Below are positions 2,884 to 40,444 of a stretch of 64,000 nt of DNA, one piece after another. The stretch is from an uncultured bacterium. GTDB taxonomy: Bacteria > Patescibacteriota > Minisyncoccia > Phycocordibacterales > GWA1-40-21. Location: positions 118 through 64,117 of the forward strand of contig CAWDSG010000001.1 in NCBI GenBank assembly GCA_963804975.1, in the 5' to 3' direction. Position numbers and translations under genes: made by a program. The notes beneath the pieces are model-generated. The model saw nothing but the letters and a program-made list of their open reading frames with translations. It was not told the DNA's origin and did not search any database. The stretch's first letter is position 1. Every line of letters begins with the position of its first letter.

Positions 2884-2966
2884 GCGCCGCTCATGTGAAA
2901 TTTCTCGCGAGGAACTGTTTGAGCGAAGCGAGTTTTCCGAGAAGAAAATTTCACATGAGCGGCGCG
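2884..2966. repeat. Long inverted repeat (22-bp arms GCGCCGCTCATGTGAAATTTCT) around a GAGCGAAGCGAG core; relative of intergenic repeat families described below; may act as recG terminator
   Basis: arms 2884-2905 and 2943-2965 are reverse complements; core shares GAGCGAAGCGAG with family-1 termini. Confidence 0.5.
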
Positions 2967-3900: not shown

Positions 3901-3908
3901 AAATTAAT

Positions 3909-4054
3909 GAGCAAAGCGACTATAATTTCTTAAACCCTGTTAAATAGGGTTGTCGAAAAGAGAGATATTCGCGAAAACAGGTTATATATAATAAAAATAG
4001 TTTATAAACAATAATTTATTTAACAGGGTGGCGATTTTTATAGTCGTTTCACTC
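3909..4054. repeat. Family-1-like nested palindromic intergenic element between rpmI and rplT (termini GAGCAAAGCGACTATAAT ... TTATAGTCGTTTCACTC; inner hairpin AACCCTGTTAAATAGGGTT)
   Basis: outer and inner inverted repeats read directly; contains TATAAT; position corresponds to where L20 autoregulatory leaders occur in other bacteria. Confidence 0.5.
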
Positions 4055-4068
4055 CTTAAAAATCAGCC

Positions 4069-7669: not shown

Positions 7670-7828
7670 AATTATATTGTATCACAAATTAAAATTCTTC
7701 GCGTAATTTTTGAAAATCACGATAAAACCGCCCTCGTCAGGGCGGTTTTTCTCTGCTCAAAGAATTTTTTGCTAAAAATTCTTCTCCGCAAGTCTTTTCA
7801 AAAACTACGCGTGCGGATTTTTCAGGTA

Positions 7829-7939
7829 AGCGAGCGAGGTGTTTCGTTTGAAAAGCCTAGGGAGCGCGACGGCGCGAGCTTGAGGAATTTTCTAGCAAGA
7901 AAATATCCGTGCTTTTCAAATAAAATACCGAGCGAGCTT
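7829..7939. repeat. Family-2 intergenic element (AAGCGAGCGAG - complementary arms - GGAGCGCGACGGCGCGAG core - CCGAGCGAGCTTT), directly abutting rplL stop
   Basis: termini, covarying arms and GC-rich core read directly; three full copies in window. Confidence 0.65.
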
Positions 7940-8329
7940 TTATTTCAATGTGATTTTTCCTCCAGCGGCCTCAACATCTTTCTTTAGTTTCTCCGCATCC
8001 TCCTTTTTCATTTCCTCTTTCAAGACCGAAGGGGCTGCGTCCACTAAATCTTTCGCTTCCTTAAGGCCAAGCCCCAAGATTTCTTTTACAACTTTGATGA
8101 CTGCTATTTTCTGGGCGCCGCTTGCAGTGAGTTCGACTTTGAATGTTGATTTCTCTTCTGCAGGTGCAGCTGCAACTGCAGGACCGGCAACCGCAACTGC
8201 TGCGGCTGAGACGCCGAATTTCTCTTCAAGAACTTTTACAAGTTCGTGAAGATCCATAACTGACATTTTTTCTATTTCTCCGACAAGCTTTTCGAATTTT
8301 GCCGGAATTGGTTTTTTTGCTTCTTCCAT
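7940..8329 (-). CDS. rplL: 50S ribosomal protein L7/L12
   Basis: 129 aa; Ala-rich hinge, C-terminal [22 protein letters not shown]...[10 protein letters not shown]. Confidence 0.92.
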
Positions 8330-8368
8330 ATTTTTATTTTAATTTAATTAATAATTTGTATTTTTTGT

Positions 8369-8482
8369 AAGCGAGCGAGGCAATTCAATTTTTAATGCCT
8401 TGGTAGGAGCGTCGGCGACAGACAGAGAAAATTTTTAGCAAAAAATTTTCGTGCATTTAAAATTGAATTGCCGAGCGAGCTT
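8369..8482. repeat. Family-2 intergenic element filling the rplJ-rplL spacer
   Basis: AAGCGAGCGAGgcaattcaattttaa ... ttaaaattgaattgCCGAGCGAGCTTTT with core GGAGCGTCGGCGACAG. Confidence 0.65.
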
Positions 8483-8968
8483 TTAAGCTGTTTTTGTTTT
8501 TGTGATTGCATCCAATACGACCGTAAATCTCTGAATCGGTGAATTGATAAGATTGACGAACTGCGCATAAAGCGTTTTCTGCGAAGGAATAGCCGCAATT
8601 GCGGTCATTTCTTCCACTGTCATATATTTCCCTTCAAAAATACCTCCGACAATTTTTACATTATCATTGTATTTTTTCTGAAAAGCGTAGAATTCTCTGG
8701 CTGGAGCCGTGAGGTCTTCGCCATAAACTATGGCAAGTTCTCCGACAAATTCCGGCATTGTGCCTGCGATTTTCGCGTTATTAAGCGCAATTTTGGCAAG
8801 AGTTTTCCTCGTTACCAGATATCCCACGCCTTCTTTTCTCAAAGCTTTTCTCATCGCCTGGTCATCCGCGACATTCAGGTTGTGAAAGTTCGCAAATACG
8901 ACCGATTTTGAACTTTTGATTGCTTTTCCAATTTCTTCAACTAATTCTTTTTTCTTTGCTTTTGTCAT
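8483..8968 (-). CDS. rplJ: 50S ribosomal protein L10
   Basis: 161 aa; L10 family sequence, adjacent to rplL. Confidence 0.88.
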   Translation of the reverse strand: MTKAKKKELVEEIGKAIKSSKSVVFANFHNLNVADDQAMRKALRKEGVGYLVTRKTLAKIALNNAKIAGTMPEFVGELAIVYGEDLTAPAREFYAFQKKYNDNVKIVGGIFEGKYMTVEEMTAIAAIPSQKTLYAQFVNLINSPIQRFTVVLDAITKTKTA

Positions 8969-8978
8969 TGATTTTTAA

Positions 8979-9089
8979 TGAATGAAGTGAATATTAAAAT
9001 CATGACCCTGTGAAATATTTTGCTTCAGCAAAATGAAAATTTAAAAATTTTCTATTTCACGGGGTGTAGAAATTATTGTCGCTTCGCTC
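8979..9089. repeat. Family-1 intergenic element in rplJ leader (outer IR GAATGAAGTGAAT..TTGTCGCTTCGCTC; inner hairpin CCCTGTGAAATATTTTGC..ATTTCACGGGG)
   Basis: nested inverted repeats read directly; 4 close copies plus 1 variant in window. Confidence 0.65.
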
Positions 9090-9269
9090 TGTAATTTCTA
9101 ACATCGACCTTGTAAATCAAGGCCTCTAAACATAGAGTGTGACCTCGACCAGATTTACGGCTTTCGCCACTGGTTGTCTTTGGCCTTAATATGGTTATAT
9201 TAGCAGAAAATAAAAAAAAGTAAAGAATAAAAAAACCGCCTATAAAAGCGCGGTTTTTAAAAAACCAAA

Positions 9270-9860
9270 CTACTTCCTAAGAGCTAGAAAGCAATCATCT
9301 CCAAACAAATTGAATGGAGTATCAAATTGTGCATCGTACGGATATGGATTATCCGGACGACTTTGTCTTTTCCAATACCTCAGATATCGAATATTAGCAC
9401 CCGATTGTTCAGACTCATAAATTGTTCCGGCAAATAAAATCTTTTTGTCTTCCCACTCATCTGGAACAAGGTATGGCCTGTTCATCAAGTGGTCCAAAAC
9501 GTTAGCATTTAAGACTGGTAATTTCAGATATTCATCAGCAAGATCTTTTATGATAATGTTTCCAAAATTACCTCCTACTGGAAATAATACAATCTCTTTT
9601 GGATCAACGGAAAACATTCCGATTCTTTTATGCGCTCGCACTCTCCAATCTTTATATGGTAGATATGGATCAAGGTCGCAATTGATAAGAGTGAAGAGAA
9701 AGTTAATTTCGGCGTTACCGAGTAATACTTCATGGAATTTCCTGAGTAAACCTTTCCGCTCCGTGAGCATTTTGATTTGCGCATTTGTCCAAGGTCCTTC
9801 ACGCCGAAATGCAGCTTTTAATTCACCAGCCTGATCAACATCGAGCATAAGATCGCTCAT
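9270..9860 (-). CDS. Hypothetical protein inserted between rplB and rplJ
   Basis: 196 aa ORF, no recognisable motif; breaks normal S10/spc synteny. Confidence 0.4.
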   Translation of the reverse strand: MSDLMLDVDQAGELKAAFRREGPWTNAQIKMLTERKGLLRKFHEVLLGNAEINFLFTLINCDLDPYLPYKDWRVRAHKRIGMFSVDPKEIVLFPVGGNFGNIIIKDLADEYLKLPVLNANVLDHLMNRPYLVPDEWEDKKILFAGTIYESEQSGANIRYLRYWKRQSRPDNPYPYDAQFDTPFNLFGDDCFLALRK

Positions 9861-9988
9861 GGTTGACCTCCTTAATTTTATTTGGACGGTGTTCTTTTTA
9901 GTGAACTATGTCCTTTTTGTTTATACCACCAATAAACAATTTTATCAATCGCAACAAAAAACACCCTTCTCGGGTGTTTTTTGAAAAA

Positions 9989-10840
9989 TTATTTCTCTCC
10001 CTTCGCCTTACCCACCTTGCGTCTTGAAACAATTAAATAATTTGAATATTTTTTGGGAGTTCTTGATTTCTGGCCTTTGCCGACATGCTTTCCCCACTTG
10101 GTCTTTGCAAATCTCATGCCTCTTCCGGATTTTCCTTCTCCTCCGCCGTACGGGTGATCCATCGGATTCATAACAGAACCTCTGACTGTCGGTCTGATGC
10201 CGAGATGCCTTGATCTTCCCGCTTTTCCGATGCTCACGAGCCAATTTTCATCGTTTGAAACGCTGCCGATTGATGCCCATGCGTTTTCCGGAACTTTTCT
10301 GACTTCGCTTGAAGGCATTTTTATATGGACATATCCGGCGTCATTTGCCACGATTTGTCCGAAGCTTCCTGCTGACCTTACAAGTTTTGCTCCGCCGCCG
10401 ACTTTGATTTCAACATTGTAAACAAAAGTACCAACCGGAATATTTTTCAAAAGAGTCCTGTTCCCCGCTTTCACTTCCGCTTTATCGGAAACCAAAAACG
10501 TATCGCCGACTTTCATTGATTTCGGCAAAAGGACATATCTTTTTTCTCCATCGGCATAATTCACAAGCCCGATGAATCCGGTTCTGTATGGATCGTATTC
10601 AACTGTCATTATTTTTGCAGGAATATTTTTCTTGTCATATGTAAAATCAATGTCTCTGAAAACCTTTTTGTTCCCGGAACCCTGATGTCTCATTGTGATT
10701 CTGCCTTTGTTGTTCCTTCCGGCATTGTTCTTTTTCCCTTTGGTCAGCGCTTTCAGCGGCCTTGACGCGGTCAAAACTCCCCTGTATGTGACAGTGGACA
10801 TATTCCTTCTTGATGGCGATGTTGGTCTGTAAAATTTCAT
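9989..10840 (-). CDS. rplB: 50S ribosomal protein L2
   Basis: 283 aa; conserved C-terminal GGGEGK..G..R region. Confidence 0.95.
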   Translation of the reverse strand: MKFYRPTSPSRRNMSTVTYRGVLTASRPLKALTKGKKNNAGRNNKGRITMRHQGSGNKKVFRDIDFTYDKKNIPAKIMTVEYDPYRTGFIGLVNYADGEKRYVLLPKSMKVGDTFLVSDKAEVKAGNRTLLKNIPVGTFVYNVEIKVGGGAKLVRSAGSFGQIVANDAGYVHIKMPSSEVRKVPENAWASIGSVSNDENWLVSIGKAGRSRHLGIRPTVRGSVMNPMDHPYGGGEGKSGRGMRFAKTKWGKHVGKGQKSRTPKKYSNYLIVSRRKVGKAKGEK

Positions 10841-12587: not shown

Positions 12588-12697
12588 CGAGCGAAGCGAG
12601 TATTGGAAAATTTAACCCTGTGAAATATTTTGCATTAGCAAAATAAAATCTGAAAGATTTTTATTTCACGGGGTAAAAAATTATAATCGCTACGCTC
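12588..12697. repeat. Family-1 intergenic element between rpsJ and rplC
   Basis: CGAGCGAAGCGAG ... CCCTGTGAAATATTTTGCATTAGCAAAATAAA..ATTTCACGGGG ... TTATAATCGCTACGCTC. Confidence 0.65.
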
Positions 12698-12706
12698 TTT
12701 AATTTT

Positions 12707-13099: not shown

Positions 13100-13107
13100 T
13101 AATTTTT

Positions 13108-13220
13108 AACGAACGAAGTAACTATAAAAATTATGACTCTGTGAAATATTTTGCATTAGCAAAATAAATTTTTTCAAAAATTTATTTCACGGGATTTAAT
13201 AAAATATAGTCGCTGTGCTC
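13108..13220. repeat. Family-1 intergenic element between tuf and rpsJ
   Basis: GAACGAAGTAACTAT ... GACTCTGTGAAATATTTTGCATTAGCAAAATAAA..ATTTCACGGGA ... ATAGTCGCTGTGCTC. Confidence 0.65.
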
Positions 13221-13229
13221 CTTATTTTA

Positions 13230-15106: not shown

Positions 15107-17271
15107 TTAAACTCTTTGAGTTGTAACTCCGCGTGTTTCAATAATAGTTTTAGCCACATTTGGTGGGACGATTTCATAATGATCAAATTCCATAATCACG
15201 GATGCTCTGCCTTCGGTAAGAGATCTCAAAGTAGTGACATAGCCGAACATTTCGGCAAGCGGAACCATCGCTTTTATGACTTTATTCATTCCTCTGTCAA
15301 ACATTTCCGTTATCTGGCCTCTTCGCGAATTGATGCTTCCCGACACGTCTCCCATAAATTTTTCCGGAGTGACAACTTCTACTTTCATCATCGGCTCAAG
15401 AAGTACCGGTCGTGCCCTTTTTGCGGCGTCCTGAAACGCCATTGAAGCGGCAATCTTGTAAGCAAGTTCGGATGAGTCAACATCGTGATACGAACCGTAC
15501 GTGAGTTCGCAGGAAACATTTACCACCCTGTATCCGGCAAGAATTCCCCTTTCCATCGCCTCTCGGACGCCTTTCTCAACTGCCGGAATAAATTCCTGCG
15601 GAATGACGCCTCCTTTGATTGAATTGATAAATTCAAAATCATCATATCTCTCGACATTCTTGGGAATTTTTGCGCCTTCTTCAAGTTTCTCCATCGGCTT
15701 GATTTTGATAAGCACGTGGCCATACTGGCCTTTTCCTCCGGATTGTTTGATGTATTTTTCTTCTTTTTCCGCCTCGCCGGTGATTGTTTCTTTGTAAGCA
15801 ACCTGCGGTTTGCCGACGTTCGCTTCCACGCCGAATTCTCTTTTCATCCTATCCACAAGAATTTCAAGATGAAGTTCTCCCATACCCGCCATAACCGTCT
15901 CGCCCGTCTCCTGATCGGATTTTATCTTGAATGTCGGATCTTCGTCCGAAAGTTTTTTCAAAGCCAGTCCCATTTTTTCCTGGTCGGCTTTTGTTTTCGG
16001 TTCAATTCTTAAAGTGATAACCGGTTCAGGAAAAATAATTTTATCCAAAAGTATCGGATGGTCTTCATCGCAGAGTGTATGGCTTGTTTTTGCGTTTTTA
16101 AGGCCGACAGCCGCCGCGATTTCTCCGGCAAAAACCGTTTCAACGTCTTCCCTGTCGTTTGCGTGCATTCTGACAACTCTGCCAAGGCGCTCCTTTTCTC
16201 CCGTCGTTGAATTGTAAATGTAAGTGCCGGCTGAAATAGTTCCGGAATAAACTCTGAAATATGTAAGCTGGCCGACAAAAGGATCGTTTTGAAGTTTGAA
16301 GGCAAGGGCGCAGAAGGGCTCCGTCATCGGATGCATGCCTGAAAATTTCTTCGCCTGTTCTCGGATCAATTCCTTTTACCGGCGGAATATCAAGAGGAGA
16401 AGGAAGATAATCCACGACAGCGTCAAGAACCAGCTGAACCCCTTTGTTTTTCAGAGCCGAGCCGGTAAAAACAGGGACTATCGTGTTTGCGATTGTCGCT
16501 TTTCTTAAAACAACTTTCAGTTCATCAACCGGAATTTCTTTTCCTTCCAAATAATCGTTCATGAGCTTTTCGTCGTTCTCGGCGATTTTTTCGACAAGCT
16601 CTGAACGGTATTTTTTTGCCTCCGCCAAAAGATTTGCCGGAATTTCCTCTTGCCTCACTTTGTCGCCCATTTCTCCGTCAAAATAAAATGCCTTCATCGT
16701 CATCAAATCCACAAGGCCTTTGAAATCAGATTCTGCGCCGATAGGAATCTGCATTCTGACCGCATATTTTGTCAGCCGCTCCAAAATTGACTGATATGAT
16801 CTTTCAAAACTTCCTCCTGTCCTGTCCAGTTTGTTTATAAAACAGATTCTTGGAACTTTTCCTTCATCGGCATATCTCCAGTTTGTTTCCGATTGCGGTT
16901 CAACTCCGGCAACACCGTCAAAAACAACGACAGCGCCGTCAAGAACTCGCAGAGATCTTTTTACCTCCGCGGTAAAATCAATATGGCCAGGCGTATCAAT
17001 AATATTAAATCTGACTTTTTTGCTCGTATCCTCTTTCGGCATATATGTCGGATTCCAAAAACAGGTGATGGCGGCGGAAGTGATGGTGATTCCTCTTTCT
17101 CTTTCCTGCTCCATCCAGTCGGTCGTGGTATTTCCGGTCGTGGACTTCGCCGATTTTGTGCTGGGTGCCTGTGTAATATAAAATTCTTTCGGACACGGTT
17201 GTTTTTCCCGCATCAATGTGGGCAATAATTCCGAAGTTCCTGACTTTTTCCAGTGGATAATCGCGTTTCAT
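15107..17271 (-). pseudogene. fusA: Elongation factor G interrupted by two +1 single-nucleotide insertions (three ORF pieces: 17005-17283, 16140-17225, 15107-16369)
   Basis: N-terminus [29 protein letters not shown] shifts frame at gaCCgga (about 17150); second shift at gacgGag (about 16335) between RHASDD and [10 protein letters not shown]; removing one C and one G restores a canonical ~720 aa EF-G. Confidence 0.8.
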
Positions 17272-17747: not shown

Positions 17748-17762
17748 GACTAATTTTATTAT

Positions 17763-17849
17763 GAGCAAAGCGAATTTTAAAATTGTCACCCTGTGAAATA
17801 TTTGAATTCTTATTTCACGGGGTTAATAAATTATTCTCACTTCGTTCGT
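17763..17849. repeat. Family-1 intergenic element (shorter copy) between rpsL and rpsG
   Basis: GAGCAAAGCGAATTTT ... CACCCTGTGAAATATTTGAATTCTTATTTCACGGGG ... TTCTCACTTCGTTCG. Confidence 0.6.
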
Positions 17850-17853
17850 TAAT

Positions 17854-18270
17854 TTATTTAACCGGTTTCGGCTTTTTCGCGCCATATTGGCTGCGGCCTT
17901 TTTTTCTTCCTTCCACTCCTGTGGCATCAAGAACCCCTCTTACAATTTGATATCTTAAGCCGACATCCTTGACTCTTCCGCCGCGAAGCAGAACAACCGA
18001 GTGTTCTTGGAGAGTATGTCCCATTCCCGGAATATAAGCTGTGACTTCCATTCCGTTTGAAAGGCGCACTCTTGCGATTTTTCTGATAGCGGAGTTCGGT
18101 TTTTTCGGTGTCTTTGTGGTGACTTTCACGCATACGCCTCTTTTGAAAGGAGAATTCAGTTTGGTCGGCCTGTTTTCAAGAATATTAAAACCCTTCATCA
18201 GAGCGACTGATTTTGGTTTTCTTTTCGCCGTCTTCCTGTTTTGTTTTATTAATTGATTTATTGTAGGCAT
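17854..18270 (-). CDS. rpsL: 30S ribosomal protein S12 (start MPTINQL)
   Basis: [16 protein letters not shown]...; canonical S12. Confidence 0.95.
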
Positions 18271-24639: not shown

Positions 24640-25137
24640 TCAAATATTTTTTATTCCATAGTCAGCGATTTTTCCGCAAAAAAGCCTGGGGAATTTCCCA
24701 TAGGCAAATGAGGTTGCGATTTCATCGCATCGCTCGTTGCCGGCAATTCCTGCGTGGCCGGCGACATGATTCCATATTATATTTTTGCCTTTCGACGCTT
24801 CCATCAATTCTTCCCAAAGATCGCGGTTCAGCACCGGTTTTTTTGCGGAATTTTTCCAATTATTTTTCCGCCAGCCATAAATCCACTTTGTTATTCCGTT
24901 TATCAAATATGAGGAATCTGTGTTTAAAATTATTTCTCCGAAACTTTTCCCCACAAATTGCAAAGCTTTTATGGCGCCCGTGAGTTCCATTCTGTTATTT
25001 GTCGTATATTTTTTAGCACCGCCTATCTCCACAACACTTCCATCAGGCATTGAAACAATCGCTCCCCAGCCGCCGGGACCGGGATTGCCGCTTGATGAGC
25101 CGTCGGAAAAAATAATAATTTTGGAAATATTTTCCAT
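24640..25137 (-). CDS. rnhA: Ribonuclease HI
   Basis: 165 aa; DGSSSGNPGPGGWGAIV, TNNRMEL, HAGIAGNERCDEIA catalytic residues. Confidence 0.88.
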   Translation of the reverse strand: MENISKIIIFSDGSSSGNPGPGGWGAIVSMPDGSVVEIGGAKKYTTNNRMELTGAIKALQFVGKSFGEIILNTDSSYLINGITKWIYGWRKNNWKNSAKKPVLNRDLWEELMEASKGKNIIWNHVAGHAGIAGNERCDEIATSFAYGKFPRLFCGKIADYGIKNI

Positions 25138-25148: not shown

Positions 25149-25263
25149 AAAGCGAGCGAGACAATGCGATTTTGATGGCTACGGAGCGCGACGGCGCGAG
25201 TATCGAGCAAATTTCCAGCAGGAAATTATGCGTACCTCAAAATCGCATTGCCGAGCGAGCTTT
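25149..25263. repeat. Family-2 intergenic element between cupin gene and rnhA
   Basis: AAGCGAGCGAGacaatgcgattttga ... GGAGCGCGACGGCGCGAG ... tcaaaatcgcattgCCGAGCGAGCTTT. Confidence 0.65.
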
Positions 25264-25266: not shown

Positions 25267-25650
25267 TTATAAATGATCCGCCTTGTCTTTTTCCGCCTCG
25301 GCTTTCGTCCTGTGGACAACGCCGTCTTTGTGATGCGGCGGCATATAGAGAGTGTAGAGTTTAAGCGGCTCGGTTTTTGATGTGTTGTAAACGTTATGCC
25401 GAGAACCGGCAGGAACAACAAAAGCGTTGCCGTCGGAAATGATGAATTTTTCATCGCCAATCACTGCTTTTCCTTCCCCGCTTTCAACGCGAAAAAACTG
25501 GTCGCTGATCTCATGGACTTCAAATCCTATTTCTTCCTCCGGCAGAAGCGACATAAGAACAACTTGGGCATTTGTGGAAGTATAAAGAACCTTCCTGTAA
25601 TCCTTGTTTTTCAAGGTCTCATTTTCTATATTTATACAAAATGGTTTCAT
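25267..25650 (-). CDS. Cupin-domain protein
   Basis: 127 aa; HxH...E...H-type cupin motifs (FEVHEISDQ, VVPAGSRHN). Confidence 0.6.
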   Translation of the reverse strand: MKPFCINIENETLKNKDYRKVLYTSTNAQVVLMSLLPEEEIGFEVHEISDQFFRVESGEGKAVIGDEKFIISDGNAFVVPAGSRHNVYNTSKTEPLKLYTLYMPPHHKDGVVHRTKAEAEKDKADHL

Positions 25651-28943: not shown

Positions 28944-31490
28944 TTATCTTTTCTTTAGTTCTTCAAATAATCTCACCTGTTCACGCTGGAGGGAGGCATC
29001 AAATATAATGCGATACTCAAAGTTTTTGTTTACACTCTGAAACTCATTAAAACCGATTTCTTTTGCCAACACTTCGTTTGTTAGATTTTCCAACTTTCCT
29101 TTATACATCTTTTTATTTGCTTCATAATCAGCTCTCTCACCTCCACCTTTTGCTTCAATCACAATAAAACGCTCTTTTGAGGTCTCAATAAGAAAGTCTG
29201 GAAAATATCTTCCGACACGCTTCTGTTCTGGGCTCCAGTATTCAAAGTAAAAATCTGTTCGGCTTGGGTCCGCACAGACACGGGCTCCAGTGAAATAGAC
29301 ATCCTTGATAGTTTCTTCTTTATCAAGCACATCTCTCAAGTATCGGAACAAATCCTTTTCATCACCGCTATCAAAAGCATAGGGATTGATATGAAAACCA
29401 AGACGACCCTTTCGTCCGTTATCCTCTTCTTCATTCTTATACACAACTAAAGCACTTCTACCCAACTGAACACTTATTTTGAAAGGAAATAGTTTTGTGA
29501 GTTCAAGTTCTTCTTCCACAATCTCGGTTTTTTCTTCATATTTGTATGCACTCTTGAGAATTTCTTGTATAACAAAAGGAATGAGAGCAAAGTTATCATT
29601 CGCTATCTTTACAAACTCTTCTCGTTTCTTACCACTGCCAAAAATAATACTATCAATCACGACACAGGATAAATGAGTATAACGATTGATGACTTCCGCT
29701 ATCTCATAGAAAGTAAAATCGTTTTTATCTTCAATCTTTCGGACCGCACGGGCTTCGCTGTATCCAGCTTTTCCCTCATCACCAAGGAAAATACCACCTT
29801 CACTTACAAATGATTGATATTGCTCTGGCTTAAACCTTTTGAAATCTATCTTGATACTTTCTGCGTTCGCTTCTTGAACTGCTAAAATCTCTTTGAGCAC
29901 TTTCTTCACCTTGATTGTCTTTCGCTTCTCTACTTCAAGAGTGTGCTCCACCATTTTTTGGTCCTGTGCGTTCAACTCACTGATGCTTGAAGCAAAGTTA
30001 TTCTTTAATTCTTTATCAAGTATTTTGTAGTTTTCTTTTGATAGGAAAATGTGAGCACGAGTAGAATTATCACCAATAGAACGGAGACAGCGTGTCGTTG
30101 ATTGAAGCACAAGAATAGTGCTCTTTGGTTTCTTATAAAGAGCGACAGAAACAAGTGAGCGACAGTTCCAACCTTCAGTTCCTTTTCCGACAAGTAGAAC
30201 AAACTGCTTTTTACTATCGGCGGTATCAAGCTGTTTGAAATCATCGGCGTTATCTTCTGCTTCTGTGTGATATTCCAAAATAGTATCTGGCGAGATATTT
30301 CTTTCAGTAAGAATACGCTCAATCTTTGGTCTCAAATCATTTCTTACATCAGCGATATTTGATGCAAAGAAAACAATCTTCGGCAATCTTCCTTCAAGTC
30401 GTTTTGTGCCATATTCAGAAATAAATGTATCAATGACCTCTTCAAGAAATTTCTGGGACCTTACTACTCCATAATCCAATATACGGACCTGTTTCAAAAT
30501 ACCTTTCTCAATACCTTGTTTGAGACCGAAGTGATAAACGACATCAGAAATCATTTTATTGTTCACATAGGGAGTTCCTGTGAGGTTCACGACAGATACA
30601 AGTGGGGTATGTTTGTGAAGATAATCAATCGTCTGGCGTGTCTTCTTCAAAGTTCCTTCAAGAGTTTTGCCGTATGAGTGATGGGCTTCATCCACAAATA
30701 TCTGGAGCGAGCCAAGCTGTCTGATTGCTTGTAATCGCATATTTTCAACTTCTCTTTTGCCGAGTTCACTCTTATCTCCAAAAAGTCTTTTTGTGGCATT
30801 GTCCCCGTCCCCATTTCTCGTCTTCAAGATTATTTTTTGAGAGTTAGAAACGATAACATTGTAATTGCCGTTTGGAGCAAGGGCTGTATCAGTGCTTTCA
30901 AGATAGTGATATTTTATATTCAAAATTATATTCTCATATTCTTTCGGAAGAACTCTTGAGTAATCAAAAGTTTTAATTTCCTTCAAACTTTCAATAATGG
31001 TTGTGTCGGGAGCAAAGACAAGAGCATTTTTCGCAAATCTTTCATCCTTATCGTGATAAAAAGATAGAACAAAATCATATAGCATCATCACCGCCATCAA
31101 GATTGTCTTTCCCGAACCCATAGTAAGAGCATAGACTTGGTTTGCATAATCCGAGGTCCCGAACTTCTCATCAAGAATTGCTTGTATCTTTTCATCTTTC
31201 TTCTTATCGTATGCAAGCTCAAATGCTTCTTTATCAGAAATACCAAGAGCACGAATAAACTCAAGCTCATTTTCAAATGATTGTCTGAACACTTCCACAG
31301 ATGCCTTATTACCAATTACCTCCTTAAGAAAAATGTATGTCTCCAGTGCTTCTATCTGTGGCTCGTGCAAAAAAGCCACTCGTCTGATATGTGCGAGTAT
31401 GTTTTCTGTTTCTTTATGGACCCCTTTGTATCCATCAGCTCGCCACTTGGCAACTTGCTTTTGTATATTTTGTAGAAAAAAACTATCCAT
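28944..31490 (-). CDS. res: Type III restriction enzyme Res subunit (SF2 helicase + C-terminal PD-(D/E)xK nuclease)
   Basis: 848 aa; Walker A MGSGKT, DEAH box FVDEAHHSYG, helicase motifs, C-terminal FPDFLIE..IEAKGG nuclease motif. Confidence 0.8.
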   Translation of the reverse strand: MDSFFLQNIQKQVAKWRADGYKGVHKETENILAHIRRVAFLHEPQIEALETYIFLKEVIGNKASVEVFRQSFENELEFIRALGISDKEAFELAYDKKKDEKIQAILDEKFGTSDYANQVYALTMGSGKTILMAVMMLYDFVLSFYHDKDERFAKNALVFAPDTTIIESLKEIKTFDYSRVLPKEYENIILNIKYHYLESTDTALAPNGNYNVIVSNSQKIILKTRNGDGDNATKRLFGDKSELGKREVENMRLQAIRQLGSLQIFVDEAHHSYGKTLEGTLKKTRQTIDYLHKHTPLVSVVNLTGTPYVNNKMISDVVYHFGLKQGIEKGILKQVRILDYGVVRSQKFLEEVIDTFISEYGTKRLEGRLPKIVFFASNIADVRNDLRPKIERILTERNISPDTILEYHTEAEDNADDFKQLDTADSKKQFVLLVGKGTEGWNCRSLVSVALYKKPKSTILVLQSTTRCLRSIGDNSTRAHIFLSKENYKILDKELKNNFASSISELNAQDQKMVEHTLEVEKRKTIKVKKVLKEILAVQEANAESIKIDFKRFKPEQYQSFVSEGGIFLGDEGKAGYSEARAVRKIEDKNDFTFYEIAEVINRYTHLSCVVIDSIIFGSGKKREEFVKIANDNFALIPFVIQEILKSAYKYEEKTEIVEEELELTKLFPFKISVQLGRSALVVYKNEEEDNGRKGRLGFHINPYAFDSGDEKDLFRYLRDVLDKEETIKDVYFTGARVCADPSRTDFYFEYWSPEQKRVGRYFPDFLIETSKERFIVIEAKGGGERADYEANKKMYKGKLENLTNEVLAKEIGFNEFQSVNKNFEYRIIFDASLQREQVRLFEELKKR

Positions 31491-31494
31491 AATT

Positions 31495-33312
31495 TTATGC
31501 GTTTATTTCAAAGGTTTCAAAGTATTCCTCACCGAGCACATCCACGATTTTGATTGCGACAGTGTATTTACCCTTCTTTGGGTAATCCCAAGAATACTTG
31601 GCTTTGATAACTTCTTTTTTATCTGGCAAGTCCATAATCTCGGCATTAAATAATTTTCCGTTGTAGTCAACATCAATCGCAACACTGTCAATAATCTGCT
31701 TGAAATCTTCTACTTTTGCTTGGCTCTTTTTTCTCGAGCACTTTTTCATTTTCAATCTCTAGTTTTCGCATCAAAATCGGGGAGTAGAAATCTTTTATCT
31801 CAACAGCGAGCTTCTTGTCTTTTGCTTTCACTTCAATTTTTGCTTCTGGCTTCTTCTTGAAGATGAGATTTTTCTTATCAGTCAAGAATATCTCGGACCT
31901 CTATTTTCACGCCAGTTTTATTTTCCTTCTTTATAAAATCTCGTCACATCAAGCTCCATACCAGAACAAATGACAAGCACACCTTCTTCATAGACTGGCT
32001 TCTCCCGCCTTTGATTTTGCTTTTACTGTAAAAGCTATCAATGCTTGTCTCCAACACTTTTGAAGACGTGTGCGAATATCCATTTTATTGAGAACACGAT
32101 TAAGAGGCATAACCTTCACAAAGTTATTATCAAGAACTCCATCAAAATATGTTCGTTTTACTGGTTCTACTCCATACATTTCCATAACAATTTCTTTCGC
32201 TTCAATTTCATTTTTGAAAACATCATAGTCATTCACATTGAGAATTTTGAAACCAAGAGAACCCTTGAAATCCTCTTTGTCTTTTCTTTTTGCTGGTCCG
32301 TAATAATTTGATTGAGCCGTTTCGTTGTTGTTTGTATTGCTCCGATATTGATGTCGCATCCTATCCATTTTCGTCCGAGTTTTTGTGCGATAACTTGTGT
32401 TGTTCCAGAACCCATAAAGAAATCAGCGACAACATCACCTTCATTTGAAGATGCCATTATAATACGCTCCAGAAGTGCCTCTGGTTTTTGCGTGGGGTAA
32501 TCAACTCTTTCTTTTGCTGTGGCGTATTTGCTGGAAGGACATCACATCACCCCAAACATCTCCTATGTTTTTTCCGTTTTTTATCACATCATCAAGGTAT
32601 ACAATCTCACCTCTACCATCAAAATATAACCTCCCGTCTTTATCTTTTTTATCAAAGCGGTCAAGATATTCTTTTTGTGCGGAACTTTTAACTTATTGAA
32701 AACCTTATTTTGAGATTTTGAATAGAAAAAGATATTATCGTGTCTTCTTATCCATTTGTTTGCTTGGGTTTTGAAACCAGACAAAACAGTAATGTCCCAT
32801 ACTAATTTCATCGCTGGAAGTTTTCAATACCAAATACTTCATCAAGAATTATTTTGACATAATGTGAGCGTTTCTGCCATCGCATATGAACATAAATACT
32901 TCCTTTTTCAGAAAGAAGTTCACGCATCAATACCAATCTTTCATATATAAATTGTAAATACTCATCTTTCTCCCAAATATCTGTATACTGTTTCTCTTCA
33001 AAAAGTCCTTGACCGACACCATTCAACTTTTTCGCCACGGACTTTCACTTTCTTCACATAGTCCGCCTTACTATCAAACGGAGGGTCAATGTATATCAAA
33101 TCTATCACTCCACGATATTCTTTCAAAAGATGCGAAAGCACTTGAAGATTATCACCCCAAAATAATTTATTAAAATCTTTTGCACTCTTATCGCCATACA
33201 CTTCAGTCTCTTGTGCTGGAAAAAATTGCACACTCTCAAGCGGTTTCTTGCCTACCCACTGGAGAAGTGGACGACCCTTTGCTTGTTCTACTTTTTGATA
33301 TTCATTTTTCAT
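31495..33312 (-). pseudogene. mod: Type III DNA methyltransferase Mod (beta-class N6/N4 MTase) broken into at least 7 ORF fragments by frameshifts
   Basis: fragments carry in order: motif IV LIYIDPPF, central ERL.LMRELLSEKGSIYVHM and IVW-like region, C-terminal motif [10 protein letters not shown]; pieces 32998-33312, 32808-33038, 32584-32811, 32233-32457, 31988-32368, 31688-31885, 31495-31755. Confidence 0.75.
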
Positions 33313-33330
33313 TGTAATTGTAATTTTTAT

Positions 33331-33546
33331 TTATAAATCTACGAATGAGAACTGCAAGAAATTGATAATGTCTTCCTTTTTGTATCTTCGCACTCGTTTG
33401 GTCCCGATGCGAATAGCTGGAAGTGTGCCATCTTGGTCCCATCTGCGGAGCGTGTTTGGATGAACTTTTAGTATTTCACACGCTTCGGAAAGTGTTAGAA
33501 GCTCTGGGACATCAAACTTGTCCTTTTTGTCGTTTTGTTGTTGCAT
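33331..33546 (-). CDS. Excisionase/AlpA-family HTH DNA-binding protein (MerR-superfamily HTH_17)
   Basis: 71 aa; LLTLSEACEILKVHPNTLRRWDQDGTLPAIRIGTKRVRRYKKEDI. Confidence 0.65.
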   Translation of the reverse strand: MQQQNDKKDKFDVPELLTLSEACEILKVHPNTLRRWDQDGTLPAIRIGTKRVRRYKKEDIINFLQFSFVDL

Positions 33547-33658
33547 ATTGATTTTATACCTACCTTTTGATACCTTTATCTTACAGCAAAGAGCTCATAT
33601 CTCCAAGAAGTCGCCTGTGGATTAAGCCCTTAAAATTACAATTAACCAAAAATTACAA

Positions 33659-34865
33659 TGGCAAAACAGTATTCAATCAATGGTTTCTTGCACAGTATAA
33701 ATGACTACTCCTTTATTGAGCAGTATTTTCAAAAATGTGGTATTACTGGTTTTTCTTATATTAAAAATCAGGATGGAAAAAAGAAAAAAAGGATGACGAA
33801 CAAATAATTAAAAGTGTTGAAGATATAATTCTGAAACAGGGTGAGGTTGTTCAACAAGAGATTGAGAGAGATTTTTCTGATATAAATAAATTATCAGATG
33901 ACAGGGGCACAGAAAACCTACTTCAAGAAGCAACCGACCAAGACATCAATCCCCCAGTAAGTGTTCTAACACAAAATAACGGACACGAAATTGCCTTTTG
34001 GTTTTTCAATAATCAGAAAAATGTTTTTGACGGAGCAAATGCTGTGCAAGAATTTTTTACAAGCGGTTGGAAGCGAGTGCCCGTGCCAAACAAAGATATT
34101 GCTGTCGTGTCTCAAAATAAAGGAGCTCTTGAAACAGCATTGAAAACATACTATCAAAATAGAGATAAAGGTCTTGGACAGCGATGTTTGATTGACATAT
34201 ACCCGAAGAAAGACAGAGTTTATGTCGTGGCTTACATTTCAGCTCGTGGAGTAAATGATGTTATCCCAGACGAGAAAAATGAAGAAAAACTCATAAAATC
34301 AACACGCAGAGAAAGCATAGAAATCTATTATCTTTATCTACGAAGTGAAGATGATAAAGAAGGAGGAGAACTTGAAATCAAAGCTAAAGGAGGATACACA
34401 ACAGAGAAAGAACTACTCCGAGTATTTTCACAATCTGTATTAAAGCATACACTTGATGACACAAAGCAAAAATACGACTTGGAACCTTTGAAAAATAAAA
34501 ATTTCTCTTTCGTTTATGATACCGAAGATGAGGTGGAGGGATGGTGGCTTAAAGGACTTGATTTGAAAACCCCAGATTTGCAGACAAAAATAAAACTTAC
34601 AACAAAAAATGAGAACGGGGGTGGTGTTGAACCAATGTGGCGACAATTAAATTCCTTGCAACTAGCAGATAAGATGAGCTCTTTGAGGTTAGACAAAGCA
34701 GAAATGAAAATAAAGTTCAAGCCAACAAAAAAGCATCCAAAAGGAACAAAGACTTTTTATATTACTTGGAAAGATACGAGCTCTCTCAACGATATTGACG
34801 ACCTTGATATAAAAGCTGGACAGGTTCTTAAAAAATCAAAAATTGATTGTGGATTTTCTAAATAA
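33659..34865 (+). CDS. Hypothetical protein, split by a frameshift inside a 7-A homopolymer (33784-33790); ATG 33659 frame stops at 33807, downstream frame 33765-34865
   Basis: adding one A joins both frames into a 402-aa ORF; no domain recognised. Confidence 0.5.
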
Positions 34866-34915
34866 ATTACTTACTAAATATAGTCATTTCTCCGATGTGG
34901 TGGCGACAATAGGAG

Positions 34916-35824
34916 ATGTTGAACAAAATAAGAAAGATTTTGATATTTTGTCTGCTTTGGATGTGCTCATTAAGATTAGCGACCCAAAGTATATCTTGGT
35001 GCAAAACCTGCGAAAGTGAGAGTGTTGAGGTCCATTATGTAGCATCACGGAAACAAGCATACACAATCTGCACCCAAGATGAACACGCTAGACGAGATTA
35101 TTTTAATCCATCCGAAATAAGACAATGGCAACTCAATACCCTACCACTACTTTCACTATTTCAAAAATCAATCGGCATACAATCACCAAAAACCACAGAA
35201 AACATTGATGGTCTCTTGTGGGATTTCGGCACACAAAAAGTAAATGGAGTCTTTTATCATTTATTTTTCTGCCGAAACATAAATGATATTGAAAAACCAA
35301 AAATATCCATCATCACAAGTCTGCCACGCTGTGTTGTGTTTTATACTGGAACACCACATATTTCTCTGCCAGATAAAGTTCTTATGGTTCCATTGATTGA
35401 CTTAATAAAAAAGATAACATCCAAAGGTTTATCAATTCACAAGGAGGTTATGGAGCAATTTTTCCCCAAAAATGTATATGCAACGAAGGAGGGGGCGATA
35501 GAACTTGATGAAAATATCGTTCTTCTAAATAATCATCTTCTTTTTGAACCATTACGAGGTGGAAACTTCCAAAAACAATCCAAGGAAAGATTGAGACCTT
35601 TCGGCGTTCGCATAATCACACACCTTTTTGGTATACGAACATATCAAGAAAACTCAAAAACACTTGCGGAACTATCAGAAGCTCTTGGTAGCACAAAAGT
35701 ATCAGTCTCAAACGAGATAAAGAGAATTGAAACAATATGCAAAAATAATAATCTTCAATTTATACTTCATAAATACTCTGGAGATAAATACGGCATCAAT
35801 CCACATTTTAGCTCGTGTAAATAG
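34916..35824 (+). CDS. Hypothetical protein with C-terminal HTH-like segment; N-terminal ~30 aa of ORF look non-protein-like and an overlapping frame (34813-35002) looks better, suggesting another 1-nt indel near 34990
   Basis: 302 aa; TLAELSEALGSTKVSVSNEIKRIE resembles HTH; alternative frame gives ...VATIGDVEQNKKDFDILSALDVLIKISDPKYILVQNLRK*. Confidence 0.4.
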   Translation: MLNKIRKILIFCLLWMCSLRLATQSISWCKTCESESVEVHYVASRKQAYTICTQDEHARRDYFNPSEIRQWQLNTLPLLSLFQKSIGIQSPKTTENIDGLLWDFGTQKVNGVFYHLFFCRNINDIEKPKISIITSLPRCVVFYTGTPHISLPDKVLMVPLIDLIKKITSKGLSIHKEVMEQFFPKNVYATKEGAIELDENIVLLNNHLLFEPLRGGNFQKQSKERLRPFGVRIITHLFGIRTYQENSKTLAELSEALGSTKVSVSNEIKRIETICKNNNLQFILHKYSGDKYGINPHFSSCK

Positions 35825-35884
35825 CTCACTAAATCATTCACCAATTTTCGCTCTTGTGTGGATAACATAAAAGCAAACACATAA

Positions 35885-35920
35885 AAAAAACCCGAGAAAT
35901 CGGGCTTTTTTATTTTTCAA
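35885..35920 (+). terminator. Rho-independent terminator
   Basis: AAAAAAAACCCGAGAAATCGGGCTTTTTTATTTTT. Confidence 0.7.
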
Positions 35921-36020
35921 AATCCATTTTTGACAAGCCATATCGGTGAACCCTTTTGTTTTGATAGTGAAGTTTTCAGTCGGAACCTCACTTATTACAA
36001 ACAACTATTAACCAAACAAT

Positions 36021-36320
36021 ATGACAAATAAAAAAACAGAAAAGTTTTTGTTAGAAGAGGAAAACGAGATTATACCTCTTGAAGACAACAGCAATTTCTT
36101 TTTTAGTTTTGATTTGGGATTAGCGACCGCACTTATAACTGCGGGATTTTCGCTTGTCTCACTGGACCGTAAAAATCTGCATAAAGCCCAATTCATTTTC
36201 CGCCGTGGAGACGGGATGGACGAAGTCGTTGATGCTTACTGGGCAGATAATCTTGAAGTGAAAGCCAGAAAATACTTTGACACTCTCAAGATGCTCAAGA
36301 ACAGATTATATTCCGAATAA
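36021..36320 (+). CDS. Hypothetical protein (element cargo)
   Basis: 99 aa ORF. Confidence 0.35.
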   Translation: MTNKKTEKFLLEEENEIIPLEDNSNFFFSFDLGLATALITAGFSLVSLDRKNLHKAQFIFRRGDGMDEVVDAYWADNLEVKARKYFDTLKMLKNRLYSE

Positions 36321-36322
36321 TT

Positions 36323-36541
36323 ATGGTTTTGTCAGATGAAGACATCATAAAATTCCAAGCACTTTATAAAAGTGAGTTCGGAATGGAAATCAGCAGAGAA
36401 GATGCCTACGAAAAAGGGATAAAACTTTTGCAATTGATGTCTGTTGTCTACAAACCTATGACGGAAAAAGAATACGAGTTTATTCAGAAGCATCGCATAG
36501 ACACGCTCCCTTTATTAGAAAAGAAACTTAAAAATATATGA
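36323..36541 (+). CDS. Hypothetical protein
   Basis: 72 aa ORF, 2-nt spacing to neighbours (operon). Confidence 0.3.
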   Translation: MVLSDEDIIKFQALYKSEFGMEISREDAYEKGIKLLQLMSVVYKPMTEKEYEFIQKHRIDTLPLLEKKLKNI

Positions 36542-36810
36542 AATCATTAGAAAGAAGGTTCCAAAGTATCGCAGAAAAAAATCCTAGTTTTAGTTCTTAC
36601 ATCTGCTTTTCCAAAGCAATAGAAGGACAGAGTTTTAACAAACAAACAGTCCATCGCTGGTTTCAAAAACTGGTTGATAAAGAGGATTATGCAAAAAATG
36701 AAAAGAGAGCCATTTTAGAGCATCTGGATAATCTTTCAAACACCTTGAGGACAACAAAAAAACAAGGCAAAACGGCTCCCCAAGCAATTCTTTTATCAAA
36801 GACGGAGTAA
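36538..36810 (+). CDS. Hypothetical protein
   Basis: 90 aa ORF overlapping previous by 4 nt. Confidence 0.3.
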   Translation: MKSLERRFQSIAEKNPSFSSYICFSKAIEGQSFNKQTVHRWFQKLVDKEDYAKNEKRAILEHLDNLSNTLRTTKKQGKTAPQAILLSKTE

Positions 36811-36840
36811 TTATCATTCACAATTAAATTATCTAACAAT

Positions 36841-38463: not shown

Positions 38464-39025
38464 AAATAAAACACTCAAACCACGCCACCAAAGAGACATC
38501 AAACGCCTTCTATCACTCATCAAGTCTATTGCCCTGCTAAATGTTTGGTGGAGAGAAAGAAATGGGTCCACAATTACAGCAAACGATGACGATATAAACG
38601 AGGCGTTCAAACTCTGGGACAAAATATCTGTGAGCCAAGAACTCAACCTGCCTCCATATATTTATAATCTCTATAAAGAAGTTATCCTGCCAGCGTGGGA
38701 AGTAAAAAATAATAGCAGAAATGATGCTATTGAAAACATTACAGGCAAACTCGGTCTTTCACGCCAAGAGGTCCTTGAAAAACACTTTGCGGTTTATGGA
38801 AGGATGCTAGACGGACACCAACTTCGCCAACAAATACTCCCAATGCTAGAAACGGCAGGACTTATCGTGCAAGAACAGGACCCCCACGATAAACGCAAGA
38901 TGATGATTTTCCCCTCCTCCCTGTATCATCTTTCTAACGAGACAAAGAATAGTGAAACGGACGGTGGGGTAAAAAACACAGAGCAAGAAAATGATGAAAT
39001 TACTAGCGATGAAATAGATTTCTAA
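38441..39025 (+). CDS. Winged-helix (MarR-like) DNA-binding protein, possible replication/regulatory factor of element
   Basis: 194 aa; ...LGLSRQEVLEKHFAVYGRMLD..QQILPMLETAGLIVQEQDPHDKRKMMIF. Confidence 0.4.
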   Translation: MKQGFLSKNKTLKPRHQRDIKRLLSLIKSIALLNVWWRERNGSTITANDDDINEAFKLWDKISVSQELNLPPYIYNLYKEVILPAWEVKNNSRNDAIENITGKLGLSRQEVLEKHFAVYGRMLDGHQLRQQILPMLETAGLIVQEQDPHDKRKMMIFPSSLYHLSNETKNSETDGGVKNTEQENDEITSDEIDF

Positions 39026-39029
39026 AATT

Positions 39030-39575
39030 ATGGAGGAAACATCACAAAAACAAATTGAAGCCAACAAACTCAACGCAGAAAAAAGCACTGGTCCAAAAAC
39101 TGAAGAAGGTAAGACTGTCAGTAAATACAACGCGATGAAACACGGATTATTGAGTGAGGAAGTTTTATTGGAGGGAGAAGACGAAGAAAAACTAGAGAAA
39201 ATCGGTAAAAATCTACGAGCCGAGCTAGAACCACACACAGAAATTGAATTGATATTGGTGGATAGGATAACCGCGAATGTCTGGCGATTAAAACGTGTTA
39301 TGCAAATGGAACGAGATATGATGGATAATAGCCAAAAAGATATGTTTAGTGGTAAGTTGCAAAAACTTGGACATACATTAACGCACTACGACATTGCTCA
39401 TAACGACATATACGGCAAACTTATTCGTTATGAGGGAAGCATTGAACGAGGTATATACAAAGCATTACACGAGCTTGAGCGTATTCAAGCAAAAAGAAAT
39501 GGTGAAAAGGTGCCACCCCCGATTGCATTAGATATTGATGTATCTGGTGAAAAAGAAAATGGGTTCGTTTCGTAA
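39030..39575 (+). CDS. Hypothetical coiled-coil protein
   Basis: 181 aa ORF. Confidence 0.3.
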   Translation: MEETSQKQIEANKLNAEKSTGPKTEEGKTVSKYNAMKHGLLSEEVLLEGEDEEKLEKIGKNLRAELEPHTEIELILVDRITANVWRLKRVMQMERDMMDNSQKDMFSGKLQKLGHTLTHYDIAHNDIYGKLIRYEGSIERGIYKALHELERIQAKRNGEKVPPPIALDIDVSGEKENGFVS

Positions 39576-39700
39576 AACAATCCAATAAATCGTAAATTAT
39601 CAAAAATTAAAATTAACCATAATCAAAGCTGTTATCTAACTGTTTATCAGTATAATCAAACCTAGTTTCTCAAATGATTTCGGCTGGTTTATAAAAATAT

Positions 39701-40303: not shown

Positions 40304-40444
40304 AACTATGACTTTAATAATAAATAATGTTATAATGTCTGTGTTGTTCCAGTTAGTAATGTATGCAGAAAACACGGGGTATTTTTATGGACAAAACGGA
40401 ACCCGAGAGGGGCGGTTTGCTAACTGTTTTGTCAATCCTCGTGA

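Follow-up and report, generated by a model that had tools for sequence, protein, structure and literature searches.

A structured intergenic repeat with a conserved three-way junction and covarying closing arms in Patescibacteria

The window analysed here, a 64,000-nt stretch of contig CAWDSG010000001.1, comes from an uncultured bacterium whose RplL homologues fall in the Paceibacterota (Patescibacteria/candidate phyla radiation). On either side of rplL, the gene of ribosomal protein L7/L12, lies a copy of a short intergenic element (c1 and c2), and a third copy (c3) is found between a cupin gene and an RNase H gene. The copies measure 112-114 nt each and their purine-rich strand is the + strand; we use the name GA strand for this strand and its equivalent elsewhere. 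A preliminary description, made from the sequence alone, had proposed that the three copies form a family, and this is confirmed: 19 distinct copies are now known from 13 contig lineages of Patescibacteria (Paceibacterota and Saccharibacteria), all with the same core and long stem. Copy c1 abuts the rplL stop codon, as had been noted. The stop codon of rplJ (8483-8485, - strand) is immediately followed by copy c2; 39 nt separate c2 from the rplL ATG (8329), so that c2 takes up 114 of the 153 nt of the rplJ-rplL spacer and not the whole spacer, as had been thought. Copy c3 starts 3 nt past the stop of the cupin gene (25267-25650, - strand) and ends 12 nt before the ATG of the RNase H gene (24640-25137, - strand).

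The three window copies share their termini. The 5' motif AAGCGAGCGAG occurs at 7828-7838, 8369-8379 and 25150-25160 and is followed, after a gap of 89-91 nt, by the 3' motif CCGAGCGAGCTT; over the full terminus, all three open with AAGCGAGCGAGG and close with CCGAGCGAGCTT. Whereas the 11-mer alone is expected 0.67 times per window by chance, we estimate the chance expectation of the full two-motif pattern at about 0.5 in 596 Gb. A covariance model (R1) scores c1 at 130 bits, c2 at 106 and c3 at 120, with E-values of about 1e-24 to 1e-30. The earlier coordinates hold for c2, but the starts of c1 and c3 were off by one (7828 and 25150). Rather than forming simple inverted repeats, the termini of these copies repeat CGAGCGAG directly within an AAG...CTT inverted frame, and on the + strand they pair in Watson-Crick fashion (AAGC/GCTT, GC/GC and GG/CC in c1) with two tandem G.A/A.G steps between. 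As had been described, the arms that adjoin the termini form pairs within each copy but vary in sequence from one copy to the next. They are not perfectly complementary, however, since mismatches occur in all three (those of c1 are given in Table 1; c2 has one and c3 two). A small hairpin with an AGCA loop is present in each copy. The GC-rich core GGAGCGCGACGGCGCGAG, in contrast, is common to c1 and c3 only, and c2 has a different, type B core, GGAGCGTCGGCGACAGACAGAG.

Folding of single sequences and folding of alignments converged on one structure, a long hairpin of about 115 nt tipped by a three-way junction. The closing stem P1, which comprises the termini and the arms, has about 29 positions per strand. 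It leads through the joining segment J1/3 (consensus CU(A/U)G(N)GA) into P3, a 4-bp hairpin with the loop GACG; GA precedes this hairpin and GAG follows it. Then follow J3/2 (consensus GAGCNCGA), P2, which is a 10-bp A/U-rich hairpin with the AGCA loop and a one-base bulge, and J2/1 (CGUG). The GACG loop is retained in 16 of the 19 copies, and the P3 stem occurs as GCGC/GCGC, GGCC/GGCC, GCAC/GUGC, GCCC/GGGC, CUC/GAG or, in lineage L071, as 11 A-U pairs. In the L071 copy the order of the two core hairpins is swapped, with both loops and the termini still on the GA strand. In k-turn and k-junction RNA motifs, a tandem sheared G.A/A.G step adjoins a 3-nt bulge and is bound by a protein of the L7Ae type; at the level of sequence, tandem G.A steps flank P3 here and recur in the base of P1. 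In an alternative reading, the core consists of two direct copies of one hexamer (GCGCGA-N2-GCGCGA; in type B, GCGACG-GCGACG). Inspection of the alignment for loop-loop or loop-junction pseudoknots gave no covarying complementarity.

The structure is borne out by the way in which the copies have diverged. In the 19-copy alignment, 95.7% of 720 cells are standard pairs, as compared to 65% after column shuffling and 38-55% when the partners are slid by 1-3 columns. Changes on both sides occur in 37 of the 38 pairs, with a covariation score of 0.84 against 0.23 in shuffles; because the alignment was fitted to the model, all of these figures are somewhat inflated. An independent alignment of the first seven copies with MAFFT and RNAalifold gave the same structure, with 21 of 38 pairs covarying. 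The compensatory covariation that had been noticed between the three window copies is thus real and strong. Paralogues L081a and L081b of a single lineage differ at no fewer than eight arm positions, i.e., at least eight, all compensated and without wobble intermediates.

Core and arms evolve very differently. Mean pairwise identity is 0.75 for the core and 0.44, which is near random, for the arms, with the length of P1 constant. The cores of L059a and L078 are 98% identical while their arms are only 42% identical, and core identity between organisms spans 75-98%. The window copies represent three core subtypes (A1 in c1, B in c2 and A2 in c3) that coexist in this genome and recur across genomes, the closest relative of each being found in another organism. 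Termini of the GAGCGAGC type occur with all three subtypes and the A1 core also occurs with other termini, which indicates that the parts are modular. The arms nonetheless belong to the element, since their length is constant and a residual similarity remains within subtypes (GG(U/C)RU...RGCC); for these reasons insertion of the core into pre-existing hairpins was rejected. Adenine-specific variation of the arms, of the kind caused by diversity-generating retroelements, was rejected as well, as all four bases vary. A role of the arms as guides found no support in the 64-kb window, where no arm has a second match besides its own partner.

The non-canonical pairs differ between the strands. Of these, 37 favour the GA strand (18 G.U and 19 G.A) and 7 the other strand (the equivalents being 4 A.C and 3 U.C); for G.U against A.C alone, 18 versus 4, the binomial p is 0.004. 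Wobble pairs are rare overall, at 2.5%. The tandem G.A steps lie in CGAG context, in which tandem G.A forms stable sheared pairs, and they are swapped for Watson-Crick pairs in other copies. In 15 of 16 copies the GA strand also has the more stable fold (mean difference 5.9 kcal/mol), although a G-rich strand is expected to fold somewhat better anyway. With moderate confidence, we take structural selection to act on the GA strand.

Table 1. Positions of the three window copies, of their parts and of the flanking ribosomal protein genes.
Feature	Position	Strand	Description
c1	7828..7939	+	core subtype A1; directly after rplL stop; GA strand antisense to rplL
c1 5' terminus AAGCGAGCGAGG	7828..7839	+	faces 7928-7939
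c1 P1 5' arm	7840..7856	+	pairs with 7911-7927; two G.T and one C.A
c1 J1/3, CTAGGGA	7857..7863	+	last GA kept across the family
c1 hairpin P3, GCGC-GACG-GCGC	7864..7875	+	
c1 J3/2, GAGCTTGA	7876..7883	+	
c1 hairpin P2, GGAATTTTCT-AGCA-AGAAAATATCC	7884..7908	+	one-base bulge on the 3' side
c1 P1 3' arm	7911..7927	+	
c1 3' terminus CCGAGCGAGCTT	7928..7939	+	
c2	8369..8482	+	core subtype B; rplJ-rplL spacer
c2 termini	8369-8380, 8471-8482	+	
c2 arms	8381-8399, 8453-8470	+	
c2 core	8400-8452	+	
c3	25150..25263	+	core subtype A2; between cupin gene and RNase H gene
c3 termini	25150-25161, 25251-25262	+	
c3 arms	25162-25179, 25234-25250	+	
c3 core	25180-25233	+	
rplL (L7/L12)	7940..8329	-	elements on either side; stop codon 7940-7942
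rplJ (L10)	8483..8968	-	upstream neighbour of c2

The copies outside the window, which lie in other genomes at non-orthologous sites and support the earlier interpretation, were found in several ways. Exact scans with both termini gave copies in L004 (a Saccharibacteria metagenome-assembled genome), L015, L038 and L059, the last of which belongs to the Paceibacterota/Minisyncoccia by its Tgt homologues. Chance matches in G+C-rich DNA accounted for 60 of 64 metagenome hits and 3 of 4 genome hits of the pattern scans. Model R1 added a second L059 copy, with fully Watson-Crick termini, and an A+U-rich copy after rpsG in L071. The GA-strand reading frame is open in some copies (..ERDGAS.RNF.A.KYPC..), and a search of a protein collection with the translated strand returned eight spurious small open reading frames (ORFs; P0121-P0128). 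Their contigs contained ten more copies: three in L081, two in L083 and one each in L078, L086, L087, L088 and L089. These ten lack the conserved end blocks, so that the GAGCGAGC termini are a feature of some copies only. Public gene catalogues list several copies as 'proteins' of 45-72 amino acids; in the window, an open frame of this kind lies at 7769-7987 (+). Coding function was rejected, as the frame contains stop codons in other copies and the arms covary at the nucleotide level; the catalogue entries are gene-calling errors that the element provokes. Each of the 19 copies is intact, and a search of roughly 290 kb with the model detected no decayed one.

No match to the element was found in the catalogues searched. 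A blastn search of 50,697 phage records and three pattern scans of IMG/VR gave no match. Comparison with Rfam, which the preliminary description had recommended, likewise matched no family. A scan of the whole window with the 4227 models of Rfam 15 at gathering threshold returned only LOOT RNA and tRNAs, and at E up to 10 nothing credible was found over c1 or c2 in the region 7700-8600; the sole overlap with c2 was a trypanosome mitochondrial rRNA model (12.8 bits, E = 7.1). At E up to 1, seven other loci gave only a chance overlap of 17.8 bits, for which the gathering score is 72. The LOOT RNA (RF03000; 58920-59042, - strand) scores 86.8 bits against a gathering score of 46.4. Its neighbours, within a phage-like block, are a terminase-like gene (56749-58191) and a DNA methylase gene, and an overlapping ORF (58348-59031) has no Pfam match and is probably spurious.

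Other hairpins in the window are distinct from this family. The hairpin at 2884-2966 (+), formerly listed as a relative, and the elements of a second group, Family 1, were rejected as members in the absence of a covariance-model match; for 2884-2966 neither model gave a hit at E limits of 10 and 5. This near-perfect hairpin has a stem of about 22 bp and follows directly on the stop codon of the gene at 707-2881, before a tRNA, with an apical loop that contains GAGCGAAGCGAG, a GCGAAGC mini-hairpin with GA flanks. Family 1 hairpins occur at about 8972-9097 (-), 12593-12705 (-), 13100-13228 (-), 17755-17855 (-) and 3905-4063 (+). They are always co-oriented with the genes, end 12-15 nt before a start codon and read GAGCGAAGCGA-15 nt-CCCCGUGAAAUA...UAUUUCACAGGG-15 nt-UCGCUUCGCUC in the mRNA sense. 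They are located before rplJ and in the rpsJ-rplC, tuf-rpsJ, rpsL-rpsG and rpmI-rplT intervals, which means that one repeat occupies all these classical positions of autoregulatory leaders of ribosomal protein genes. Downstream of c1 there is a hairpin with a T run, AAAACCGCCCTCGTCAGGGCGGTTTTT (7709-7750), whose flank recurs at 43308-43349 with 86% complementarity, and beside it a small P2-like hairpin in opposite orientation, gaattttttGCTAaaaattc (7759-7783).

All copies are intergenic and are found beside housekeeping genes of unrelated function, including rplL, rplJ, rpsR/efp, rpsG/fusA, ftsZ, polA, tgt, and genes for an ABC transporter, an FtsQ-like protein and FtsK. Relative to the flanking genes, the GA strand runs antisense in 13 of the 17 scorable copies and sense in three or four, with two copies ambiguous; both orientations occur within one ABC-transporter cluster of L081. 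Measured from the upstream stop codon (TAA or TAG), the start of all 13 antisense copies falls between -2 and about +8 nt, and at exactly 0 in seven; this leaves 9-70 nt of leader ahead of the following start codon. Three copies are clearly in sense orientation, and the 3' end of their GA strand is 14-20 nt away from the following ATG. The start regions of rplJ and rplL contained no Shine-Dalgarno motif on inspection. On the GA strand no conserved promoter was found upstream beyond the A+T-rich background. At least five T in the 8 nt after the stem were present in 9 of 19 copies on the GA strand and in 3 of 19 on the other, a strand difference that is not significant (mean T count 3.6 versus 2.7, p = 0.15), and a scan for consensus terminators made no call at these elements. 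The fusA gene of the window (elongation factor G; 15107-17225, - strand) consists of two ORFs, 16140-17225 and 15107-16369, with a 230-nt overlap, which could reflect a frameshift, a sequencing error or a real split; in the relative L070, fusA and tuf are both split.

The orthologous rplJ-rplL spacer is an empty 30 nt in L070 and L071 and contains unrelated inserts in L073-L076. Because of this, the sites of c1 and c2 are not shared with these relatives, of which the RplL proteins are 82-88% identical. The L073 spacer (9856-10000) holds a run of 8-nt repeats of the ACGAAT type, which also occur at 200-241 of L087, beside its copy of the element, and the L075 spacer (9889-10000) holds an inverted pair of repeats of the type GTCATTGCGAGCGTAGCG..., with a GAGCG(A/T)AGCG motif in common with Family 1.

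The flanks of the 19 copies revealed neither a target-site duplication nor a fixed target sequence. No transposase or reverse transcriptase was found among the scanned window proteins or the genes called around the copies, and no Y1 transposase domain among 30 Pfam-scanned proteins or in the Pfam labels of the loci (64 kb plus short loci). The window does contain two mobile-looking blocks. The block at 28944-42159 encodes a ResIII helicase, a Toprim primase and a large serine recombinase (40445-42118), the end of which overlaps a tRNA (42089-42159). The other, at 51000-61164, encodes ThsB-TIR, LexA, a methylase, a terminase and a second large serine recombinase (59845-61164).

Non-orthologous sites, empty orthologous sites and near-identical cores across classes indicate that the element moves or has moved. 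We therefore favour, with a probability of roughly 0.42, the interpretation that it is a non-autonomous, horizontally spreading repeat that is recognised through the fold of its GA strand, and of which the sites and orientations are shaped by host selection. The earlier proposal of a structured RNA or a repeat of the miniature inverted-repeat transposable element (MITE) or repetitive extragenic palindromic (REP) type thus holds as far as a structured, repeated and evidently mobile intergenic element is concerned, but this element is neither a classical MITE nor a classical REP. In a mobile repeat, the constraint on P1 would be limited to complementarity and a fixed length, and the asymmetric three-way junction of about 60 nt, with P3 (GACG loop, GA...GA flanks), P2 (AGCA loop) and purine-rich joining segments, would provide the recognition surface. 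We infer a trans-acting protein that would copy or move the element through a single-stranded intermediate, either single-stranded DNA (ssDNA) or RNA, for which the hairpin substrates of the REPIN/IS200 type are the nearest analogy. Host selection would purge harmful insertions, and the survivors would be those in intergenic DNA, in the first nucleotides past a stop codon, where the A+U-rich leader of the next gene stays intact. Most survivors would also be oriented such that the very stable GA-strand fold is kept out of the operon mRNA.

Several observations weigh against this interpretation. The loci examined yielded no mobilising enzyme, insertion footprint or target-site duplication, and movement is deduced from the distribution only, not from a pair of close strains differing by one copy. 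The copies within a genome are old and diverged into three core subtypes. Since 19 of 19 copies are intact and no relics occur in about 290 kb, host maintenance at each locus explains the data no less well than selfish turnover does. For the flanking genes, the GA strand mostly serves as template, which is awkward for an IS200-like route: provided that these genes are co-directional with replication, it would be the template of the leading strand, the one that is least exposed in single-stranded form. The low wobble frequency of 2.5% could also be explained by correction of quasipalindromes at the DNA level instead of by selection on a fold.

The preservation of all 19 copies despite deep divergence, and a pattern of invariant junction and loop nucleotides with stems free to covary, as in riboswitches and ribozymes, suit a host-functional structured RNA that would be expressed from the GA strand. 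Such an RNA would bind a protein or be catalytic, e.g., a new self-cleaving ribozyme, and would be its own transcript or be excised from antisense or sense transcripts, with P1 closing and protecting it and the junction being active. This possibility gains from the preference of both non-canonical pairs and folding energy for the GA strand, from the presence of three core subtypes in one genome that recur across genomes, and from the tandem G.A step that flanks P3 like stem II of the hammerhead ribozyme. It is the strongest of the alternatives and a serious one, but we consider it less probable than a mobile repeat. No conserved promoter lies upstream, the U-tract past the stem is not significantly enriched, the neighbouring genes have no common function, and a gene running antisense in the rplJ-rplL spacer would conflict with the very strong expression of this operon. 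Furthermore, ribozymes and riboswitches seldom have a perfect closing stem of 29 positions, Rfam offers no credible match to a ribozyme or any other family even at E up to 10, and the junction reads CU(A/U)G(N)GA instead of the hammerhead CUGANGA. A related and unlikely idea is that the GA strand is a new functional fold specific to Patescibacteria, either RNA that travels on a mobile hairpin, as a new self-cleaving ribozyme or to recruit proteins, or ssDNA that a hairpin-specific mobilising enzyme not yet described would use as its substrate; the invariant junction with its tandem G.A steps would then be the active or recognition site. If instead the hairpin acts within the mRNA at the stop codon, mostly as the pyrimidine-rich strand, it would protect the upstream 3' end or serve as an RNase III site while holding the stop codon and the next start codon near in space, as in REP and enterobacterial repetitive intergenic consensus (ERIC) elements and the intercistronic RNase III sites of phage T7. 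A stem of about 29 positions is long enough for RNase III, is almost entirely Watson-Crick paired and works in either orientation. Both orientations indeed occur in one L081 operon, all 13 antisense copies start 0 to about 8 nt past a stop codon inside operons, and a leader of the original length is kept (39 nt at c2 versus 30 nt in empty sites). We nevertheless consider a role in the mRNA quite unlikely. The strand asymmetry points to the other strand, as the mRNA strand of antisense copies has nine C.A mismatches against four G.U pairs, plus tandem U.C mismatches at the termini. A plain hairpin function would also leave the asymmetric core (about 60 nt, with 75-98% conservation across classes) unexplained, and a separate terminator-like hairpin with a T run (7724-7750) follows c1 and makes c1 dispensable as a 3' end.

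Rare wobble pairs might also point to selection on the DNA, as a folded ssDNA or cruciform site that acts in recombination like attC, as a single-strand initiation signal or by binding a protein at the GCGCGA or GCGACG repeats. Tandem sheared G.A pairs in CGAG context and mini-hairpins of the GCGAAGC type are stable in DNA too, the stems are almost purely Watson-Crick (2.5% wobble), the compensated arm differences between L081a and L081b (at least eight) came about without wobble intermediates, and the core has the form of a direct repeat, as given above. The attC sites function through asymmetric bubbles by which one strand is marked, and attC-like ssDNA motifs have been discussed (PMC5737381). 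On the other hand, the attC core sites R''/R' (GTTRRRY), an integrase and a cassette array are all missing and the neighbours are housekeeping genes; the L071 copy retains the P3 hairpin without the direct repeat; and the favoured strand is mostly the template and rarely single-stranded. A function as a DNA site is accordingly improbable. The last option, a plain intrinsic terminator, possibly bidirectional, or an attenuator, can draw on the A-tract, G+C-rich stem base and U-tract of some copies, including all three of L081, on the GAGCTTTTATTT ends of the window copies on the GA strand, and on the 9 of 19 copies with at least five T in the 8 nt past the stem on that strand. We consider it very improbable, given that the T counts (3.6 versus 2.7) do not differ significantly between the strands (p = 0.15), that the consensus terminator scan was negative, and that the U-rich side opposes the operon in most copies. 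Termination would also separate co-translated partners (rplJ/rplL; ABC ATPase/permease) and would have no use for a conserved three-way junction.

The element is of interest irrespective of which interpretation applies. Patescibacteria are ultra-small bacteria whose streamlined genomes of about 1 Mb have very short intergenic spacers, and an intact 115-nt element that occurs several times per 64 kb, even in core ribosomal protein operons, is unexpected baggage. A conserved core combined with randomised pairing stems is the usual signature of a functional structured RNA or ssDNA. Should the element be mobile, it would point to a mobilisation system not known so far in a group regarded as transposon-poor; should it be a host RNA, it would represent a new motif class. 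The covariance model can be used for annotating Patescibacteria genomes, which would prevent spurious ORF calls.

Comparison with known systems suggests that the element, by analogy, works most like ERIC elements and REPINs, which are REP doublets that form hairpins. ERIC elements, also called intergenic repeat units (IRU), are 127-bp imperfect palindromes of enterobacteria. The likeness, which we compared by description, is functional and architectural only: a similar size, an imperfect palindrome in intergenic and mostly transcribed DNA in either orientation, a sequence that is kept between species at differing positions, and non-autonomous spread by an unknown mechanism. In contrast to ERIC, the asymmetric three-way-junction apex is far better conserved than the near-random pairing arms, the hosts are Patescibacteria and not enterobacteria or vibrios, and the copies abut stop codons. 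REPINs are mobilised by RAYT tyrosine transposases (PMC3116915, PMC8266576). They share with the present element conserved end blocks, a hairpin segment limited by length and pairing with frequent compensatory changes, extragenic location, the lack of target-site duplication and a proposed single-stranded hairpin intermediate. Unlike REPINs, the element has an extra conserved central module, a low copy number, diverged copies and no RAYT gene in the 64 kb plus short loci examined. A REP/REPIN assignment was rejected even though a variable pairing segment is present, as the ends are direct repeats (CGAGCGAG) without GTAG/CTAC and are absent from many copies.

Similarities to other systems are more limited. 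The Correia or NEMIS elements of Neisseria are also intergenic hairpin repeats of about 100-150 bp. They are co-transcribed with their neighbours and their stem is an RNase III substrate; however, their conserved 26-bp terminal inverted repeats and TA target duplication are both missing here. A MITE of a DDE transposon was rejected in view of the arm identity of 0.44, the direct-repeat ends and the lack of a target-site duplication. With attC sites the element has in common that structure is kept over stem sequence, that unpaired or non-canonical positions make the strands unequal, and that it lies directly downstream of an ORF. Yet attC sites have no conserved branched apex, the R''/R' core sites, integrase and cassette arrays are lacking, and an integron attC site was rejected because RYYYAAC and GTTRRRY do not occur at the ends and the flanks consist of ribosomal and other housekeeping genes. 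The hammerhead ribozyme provides a structural analogy only, with a three-way junction, one hairpin extended by a tandem G.A/A.G step, variable stems, conserved junction nucleotides and multiple copies in either orientation. Its closing stem is a few bp long as compared to about 29 positions here, and a hammerhead was rejected since the CUGANGA/GAAA/H core is absent, the junctions are CU(A/U)G(N)GA and GAGCNCGA, and Rfam gave no hit. Absent from the catalogues searched (Rfam 15, phage records and IMG/VR), the element adds a new family to the small structured intergenic repeats, distinguished by an invariant branched core, randomised pairing arms, strand-asymmetric non-canonical pairs and abutment to stop codons.

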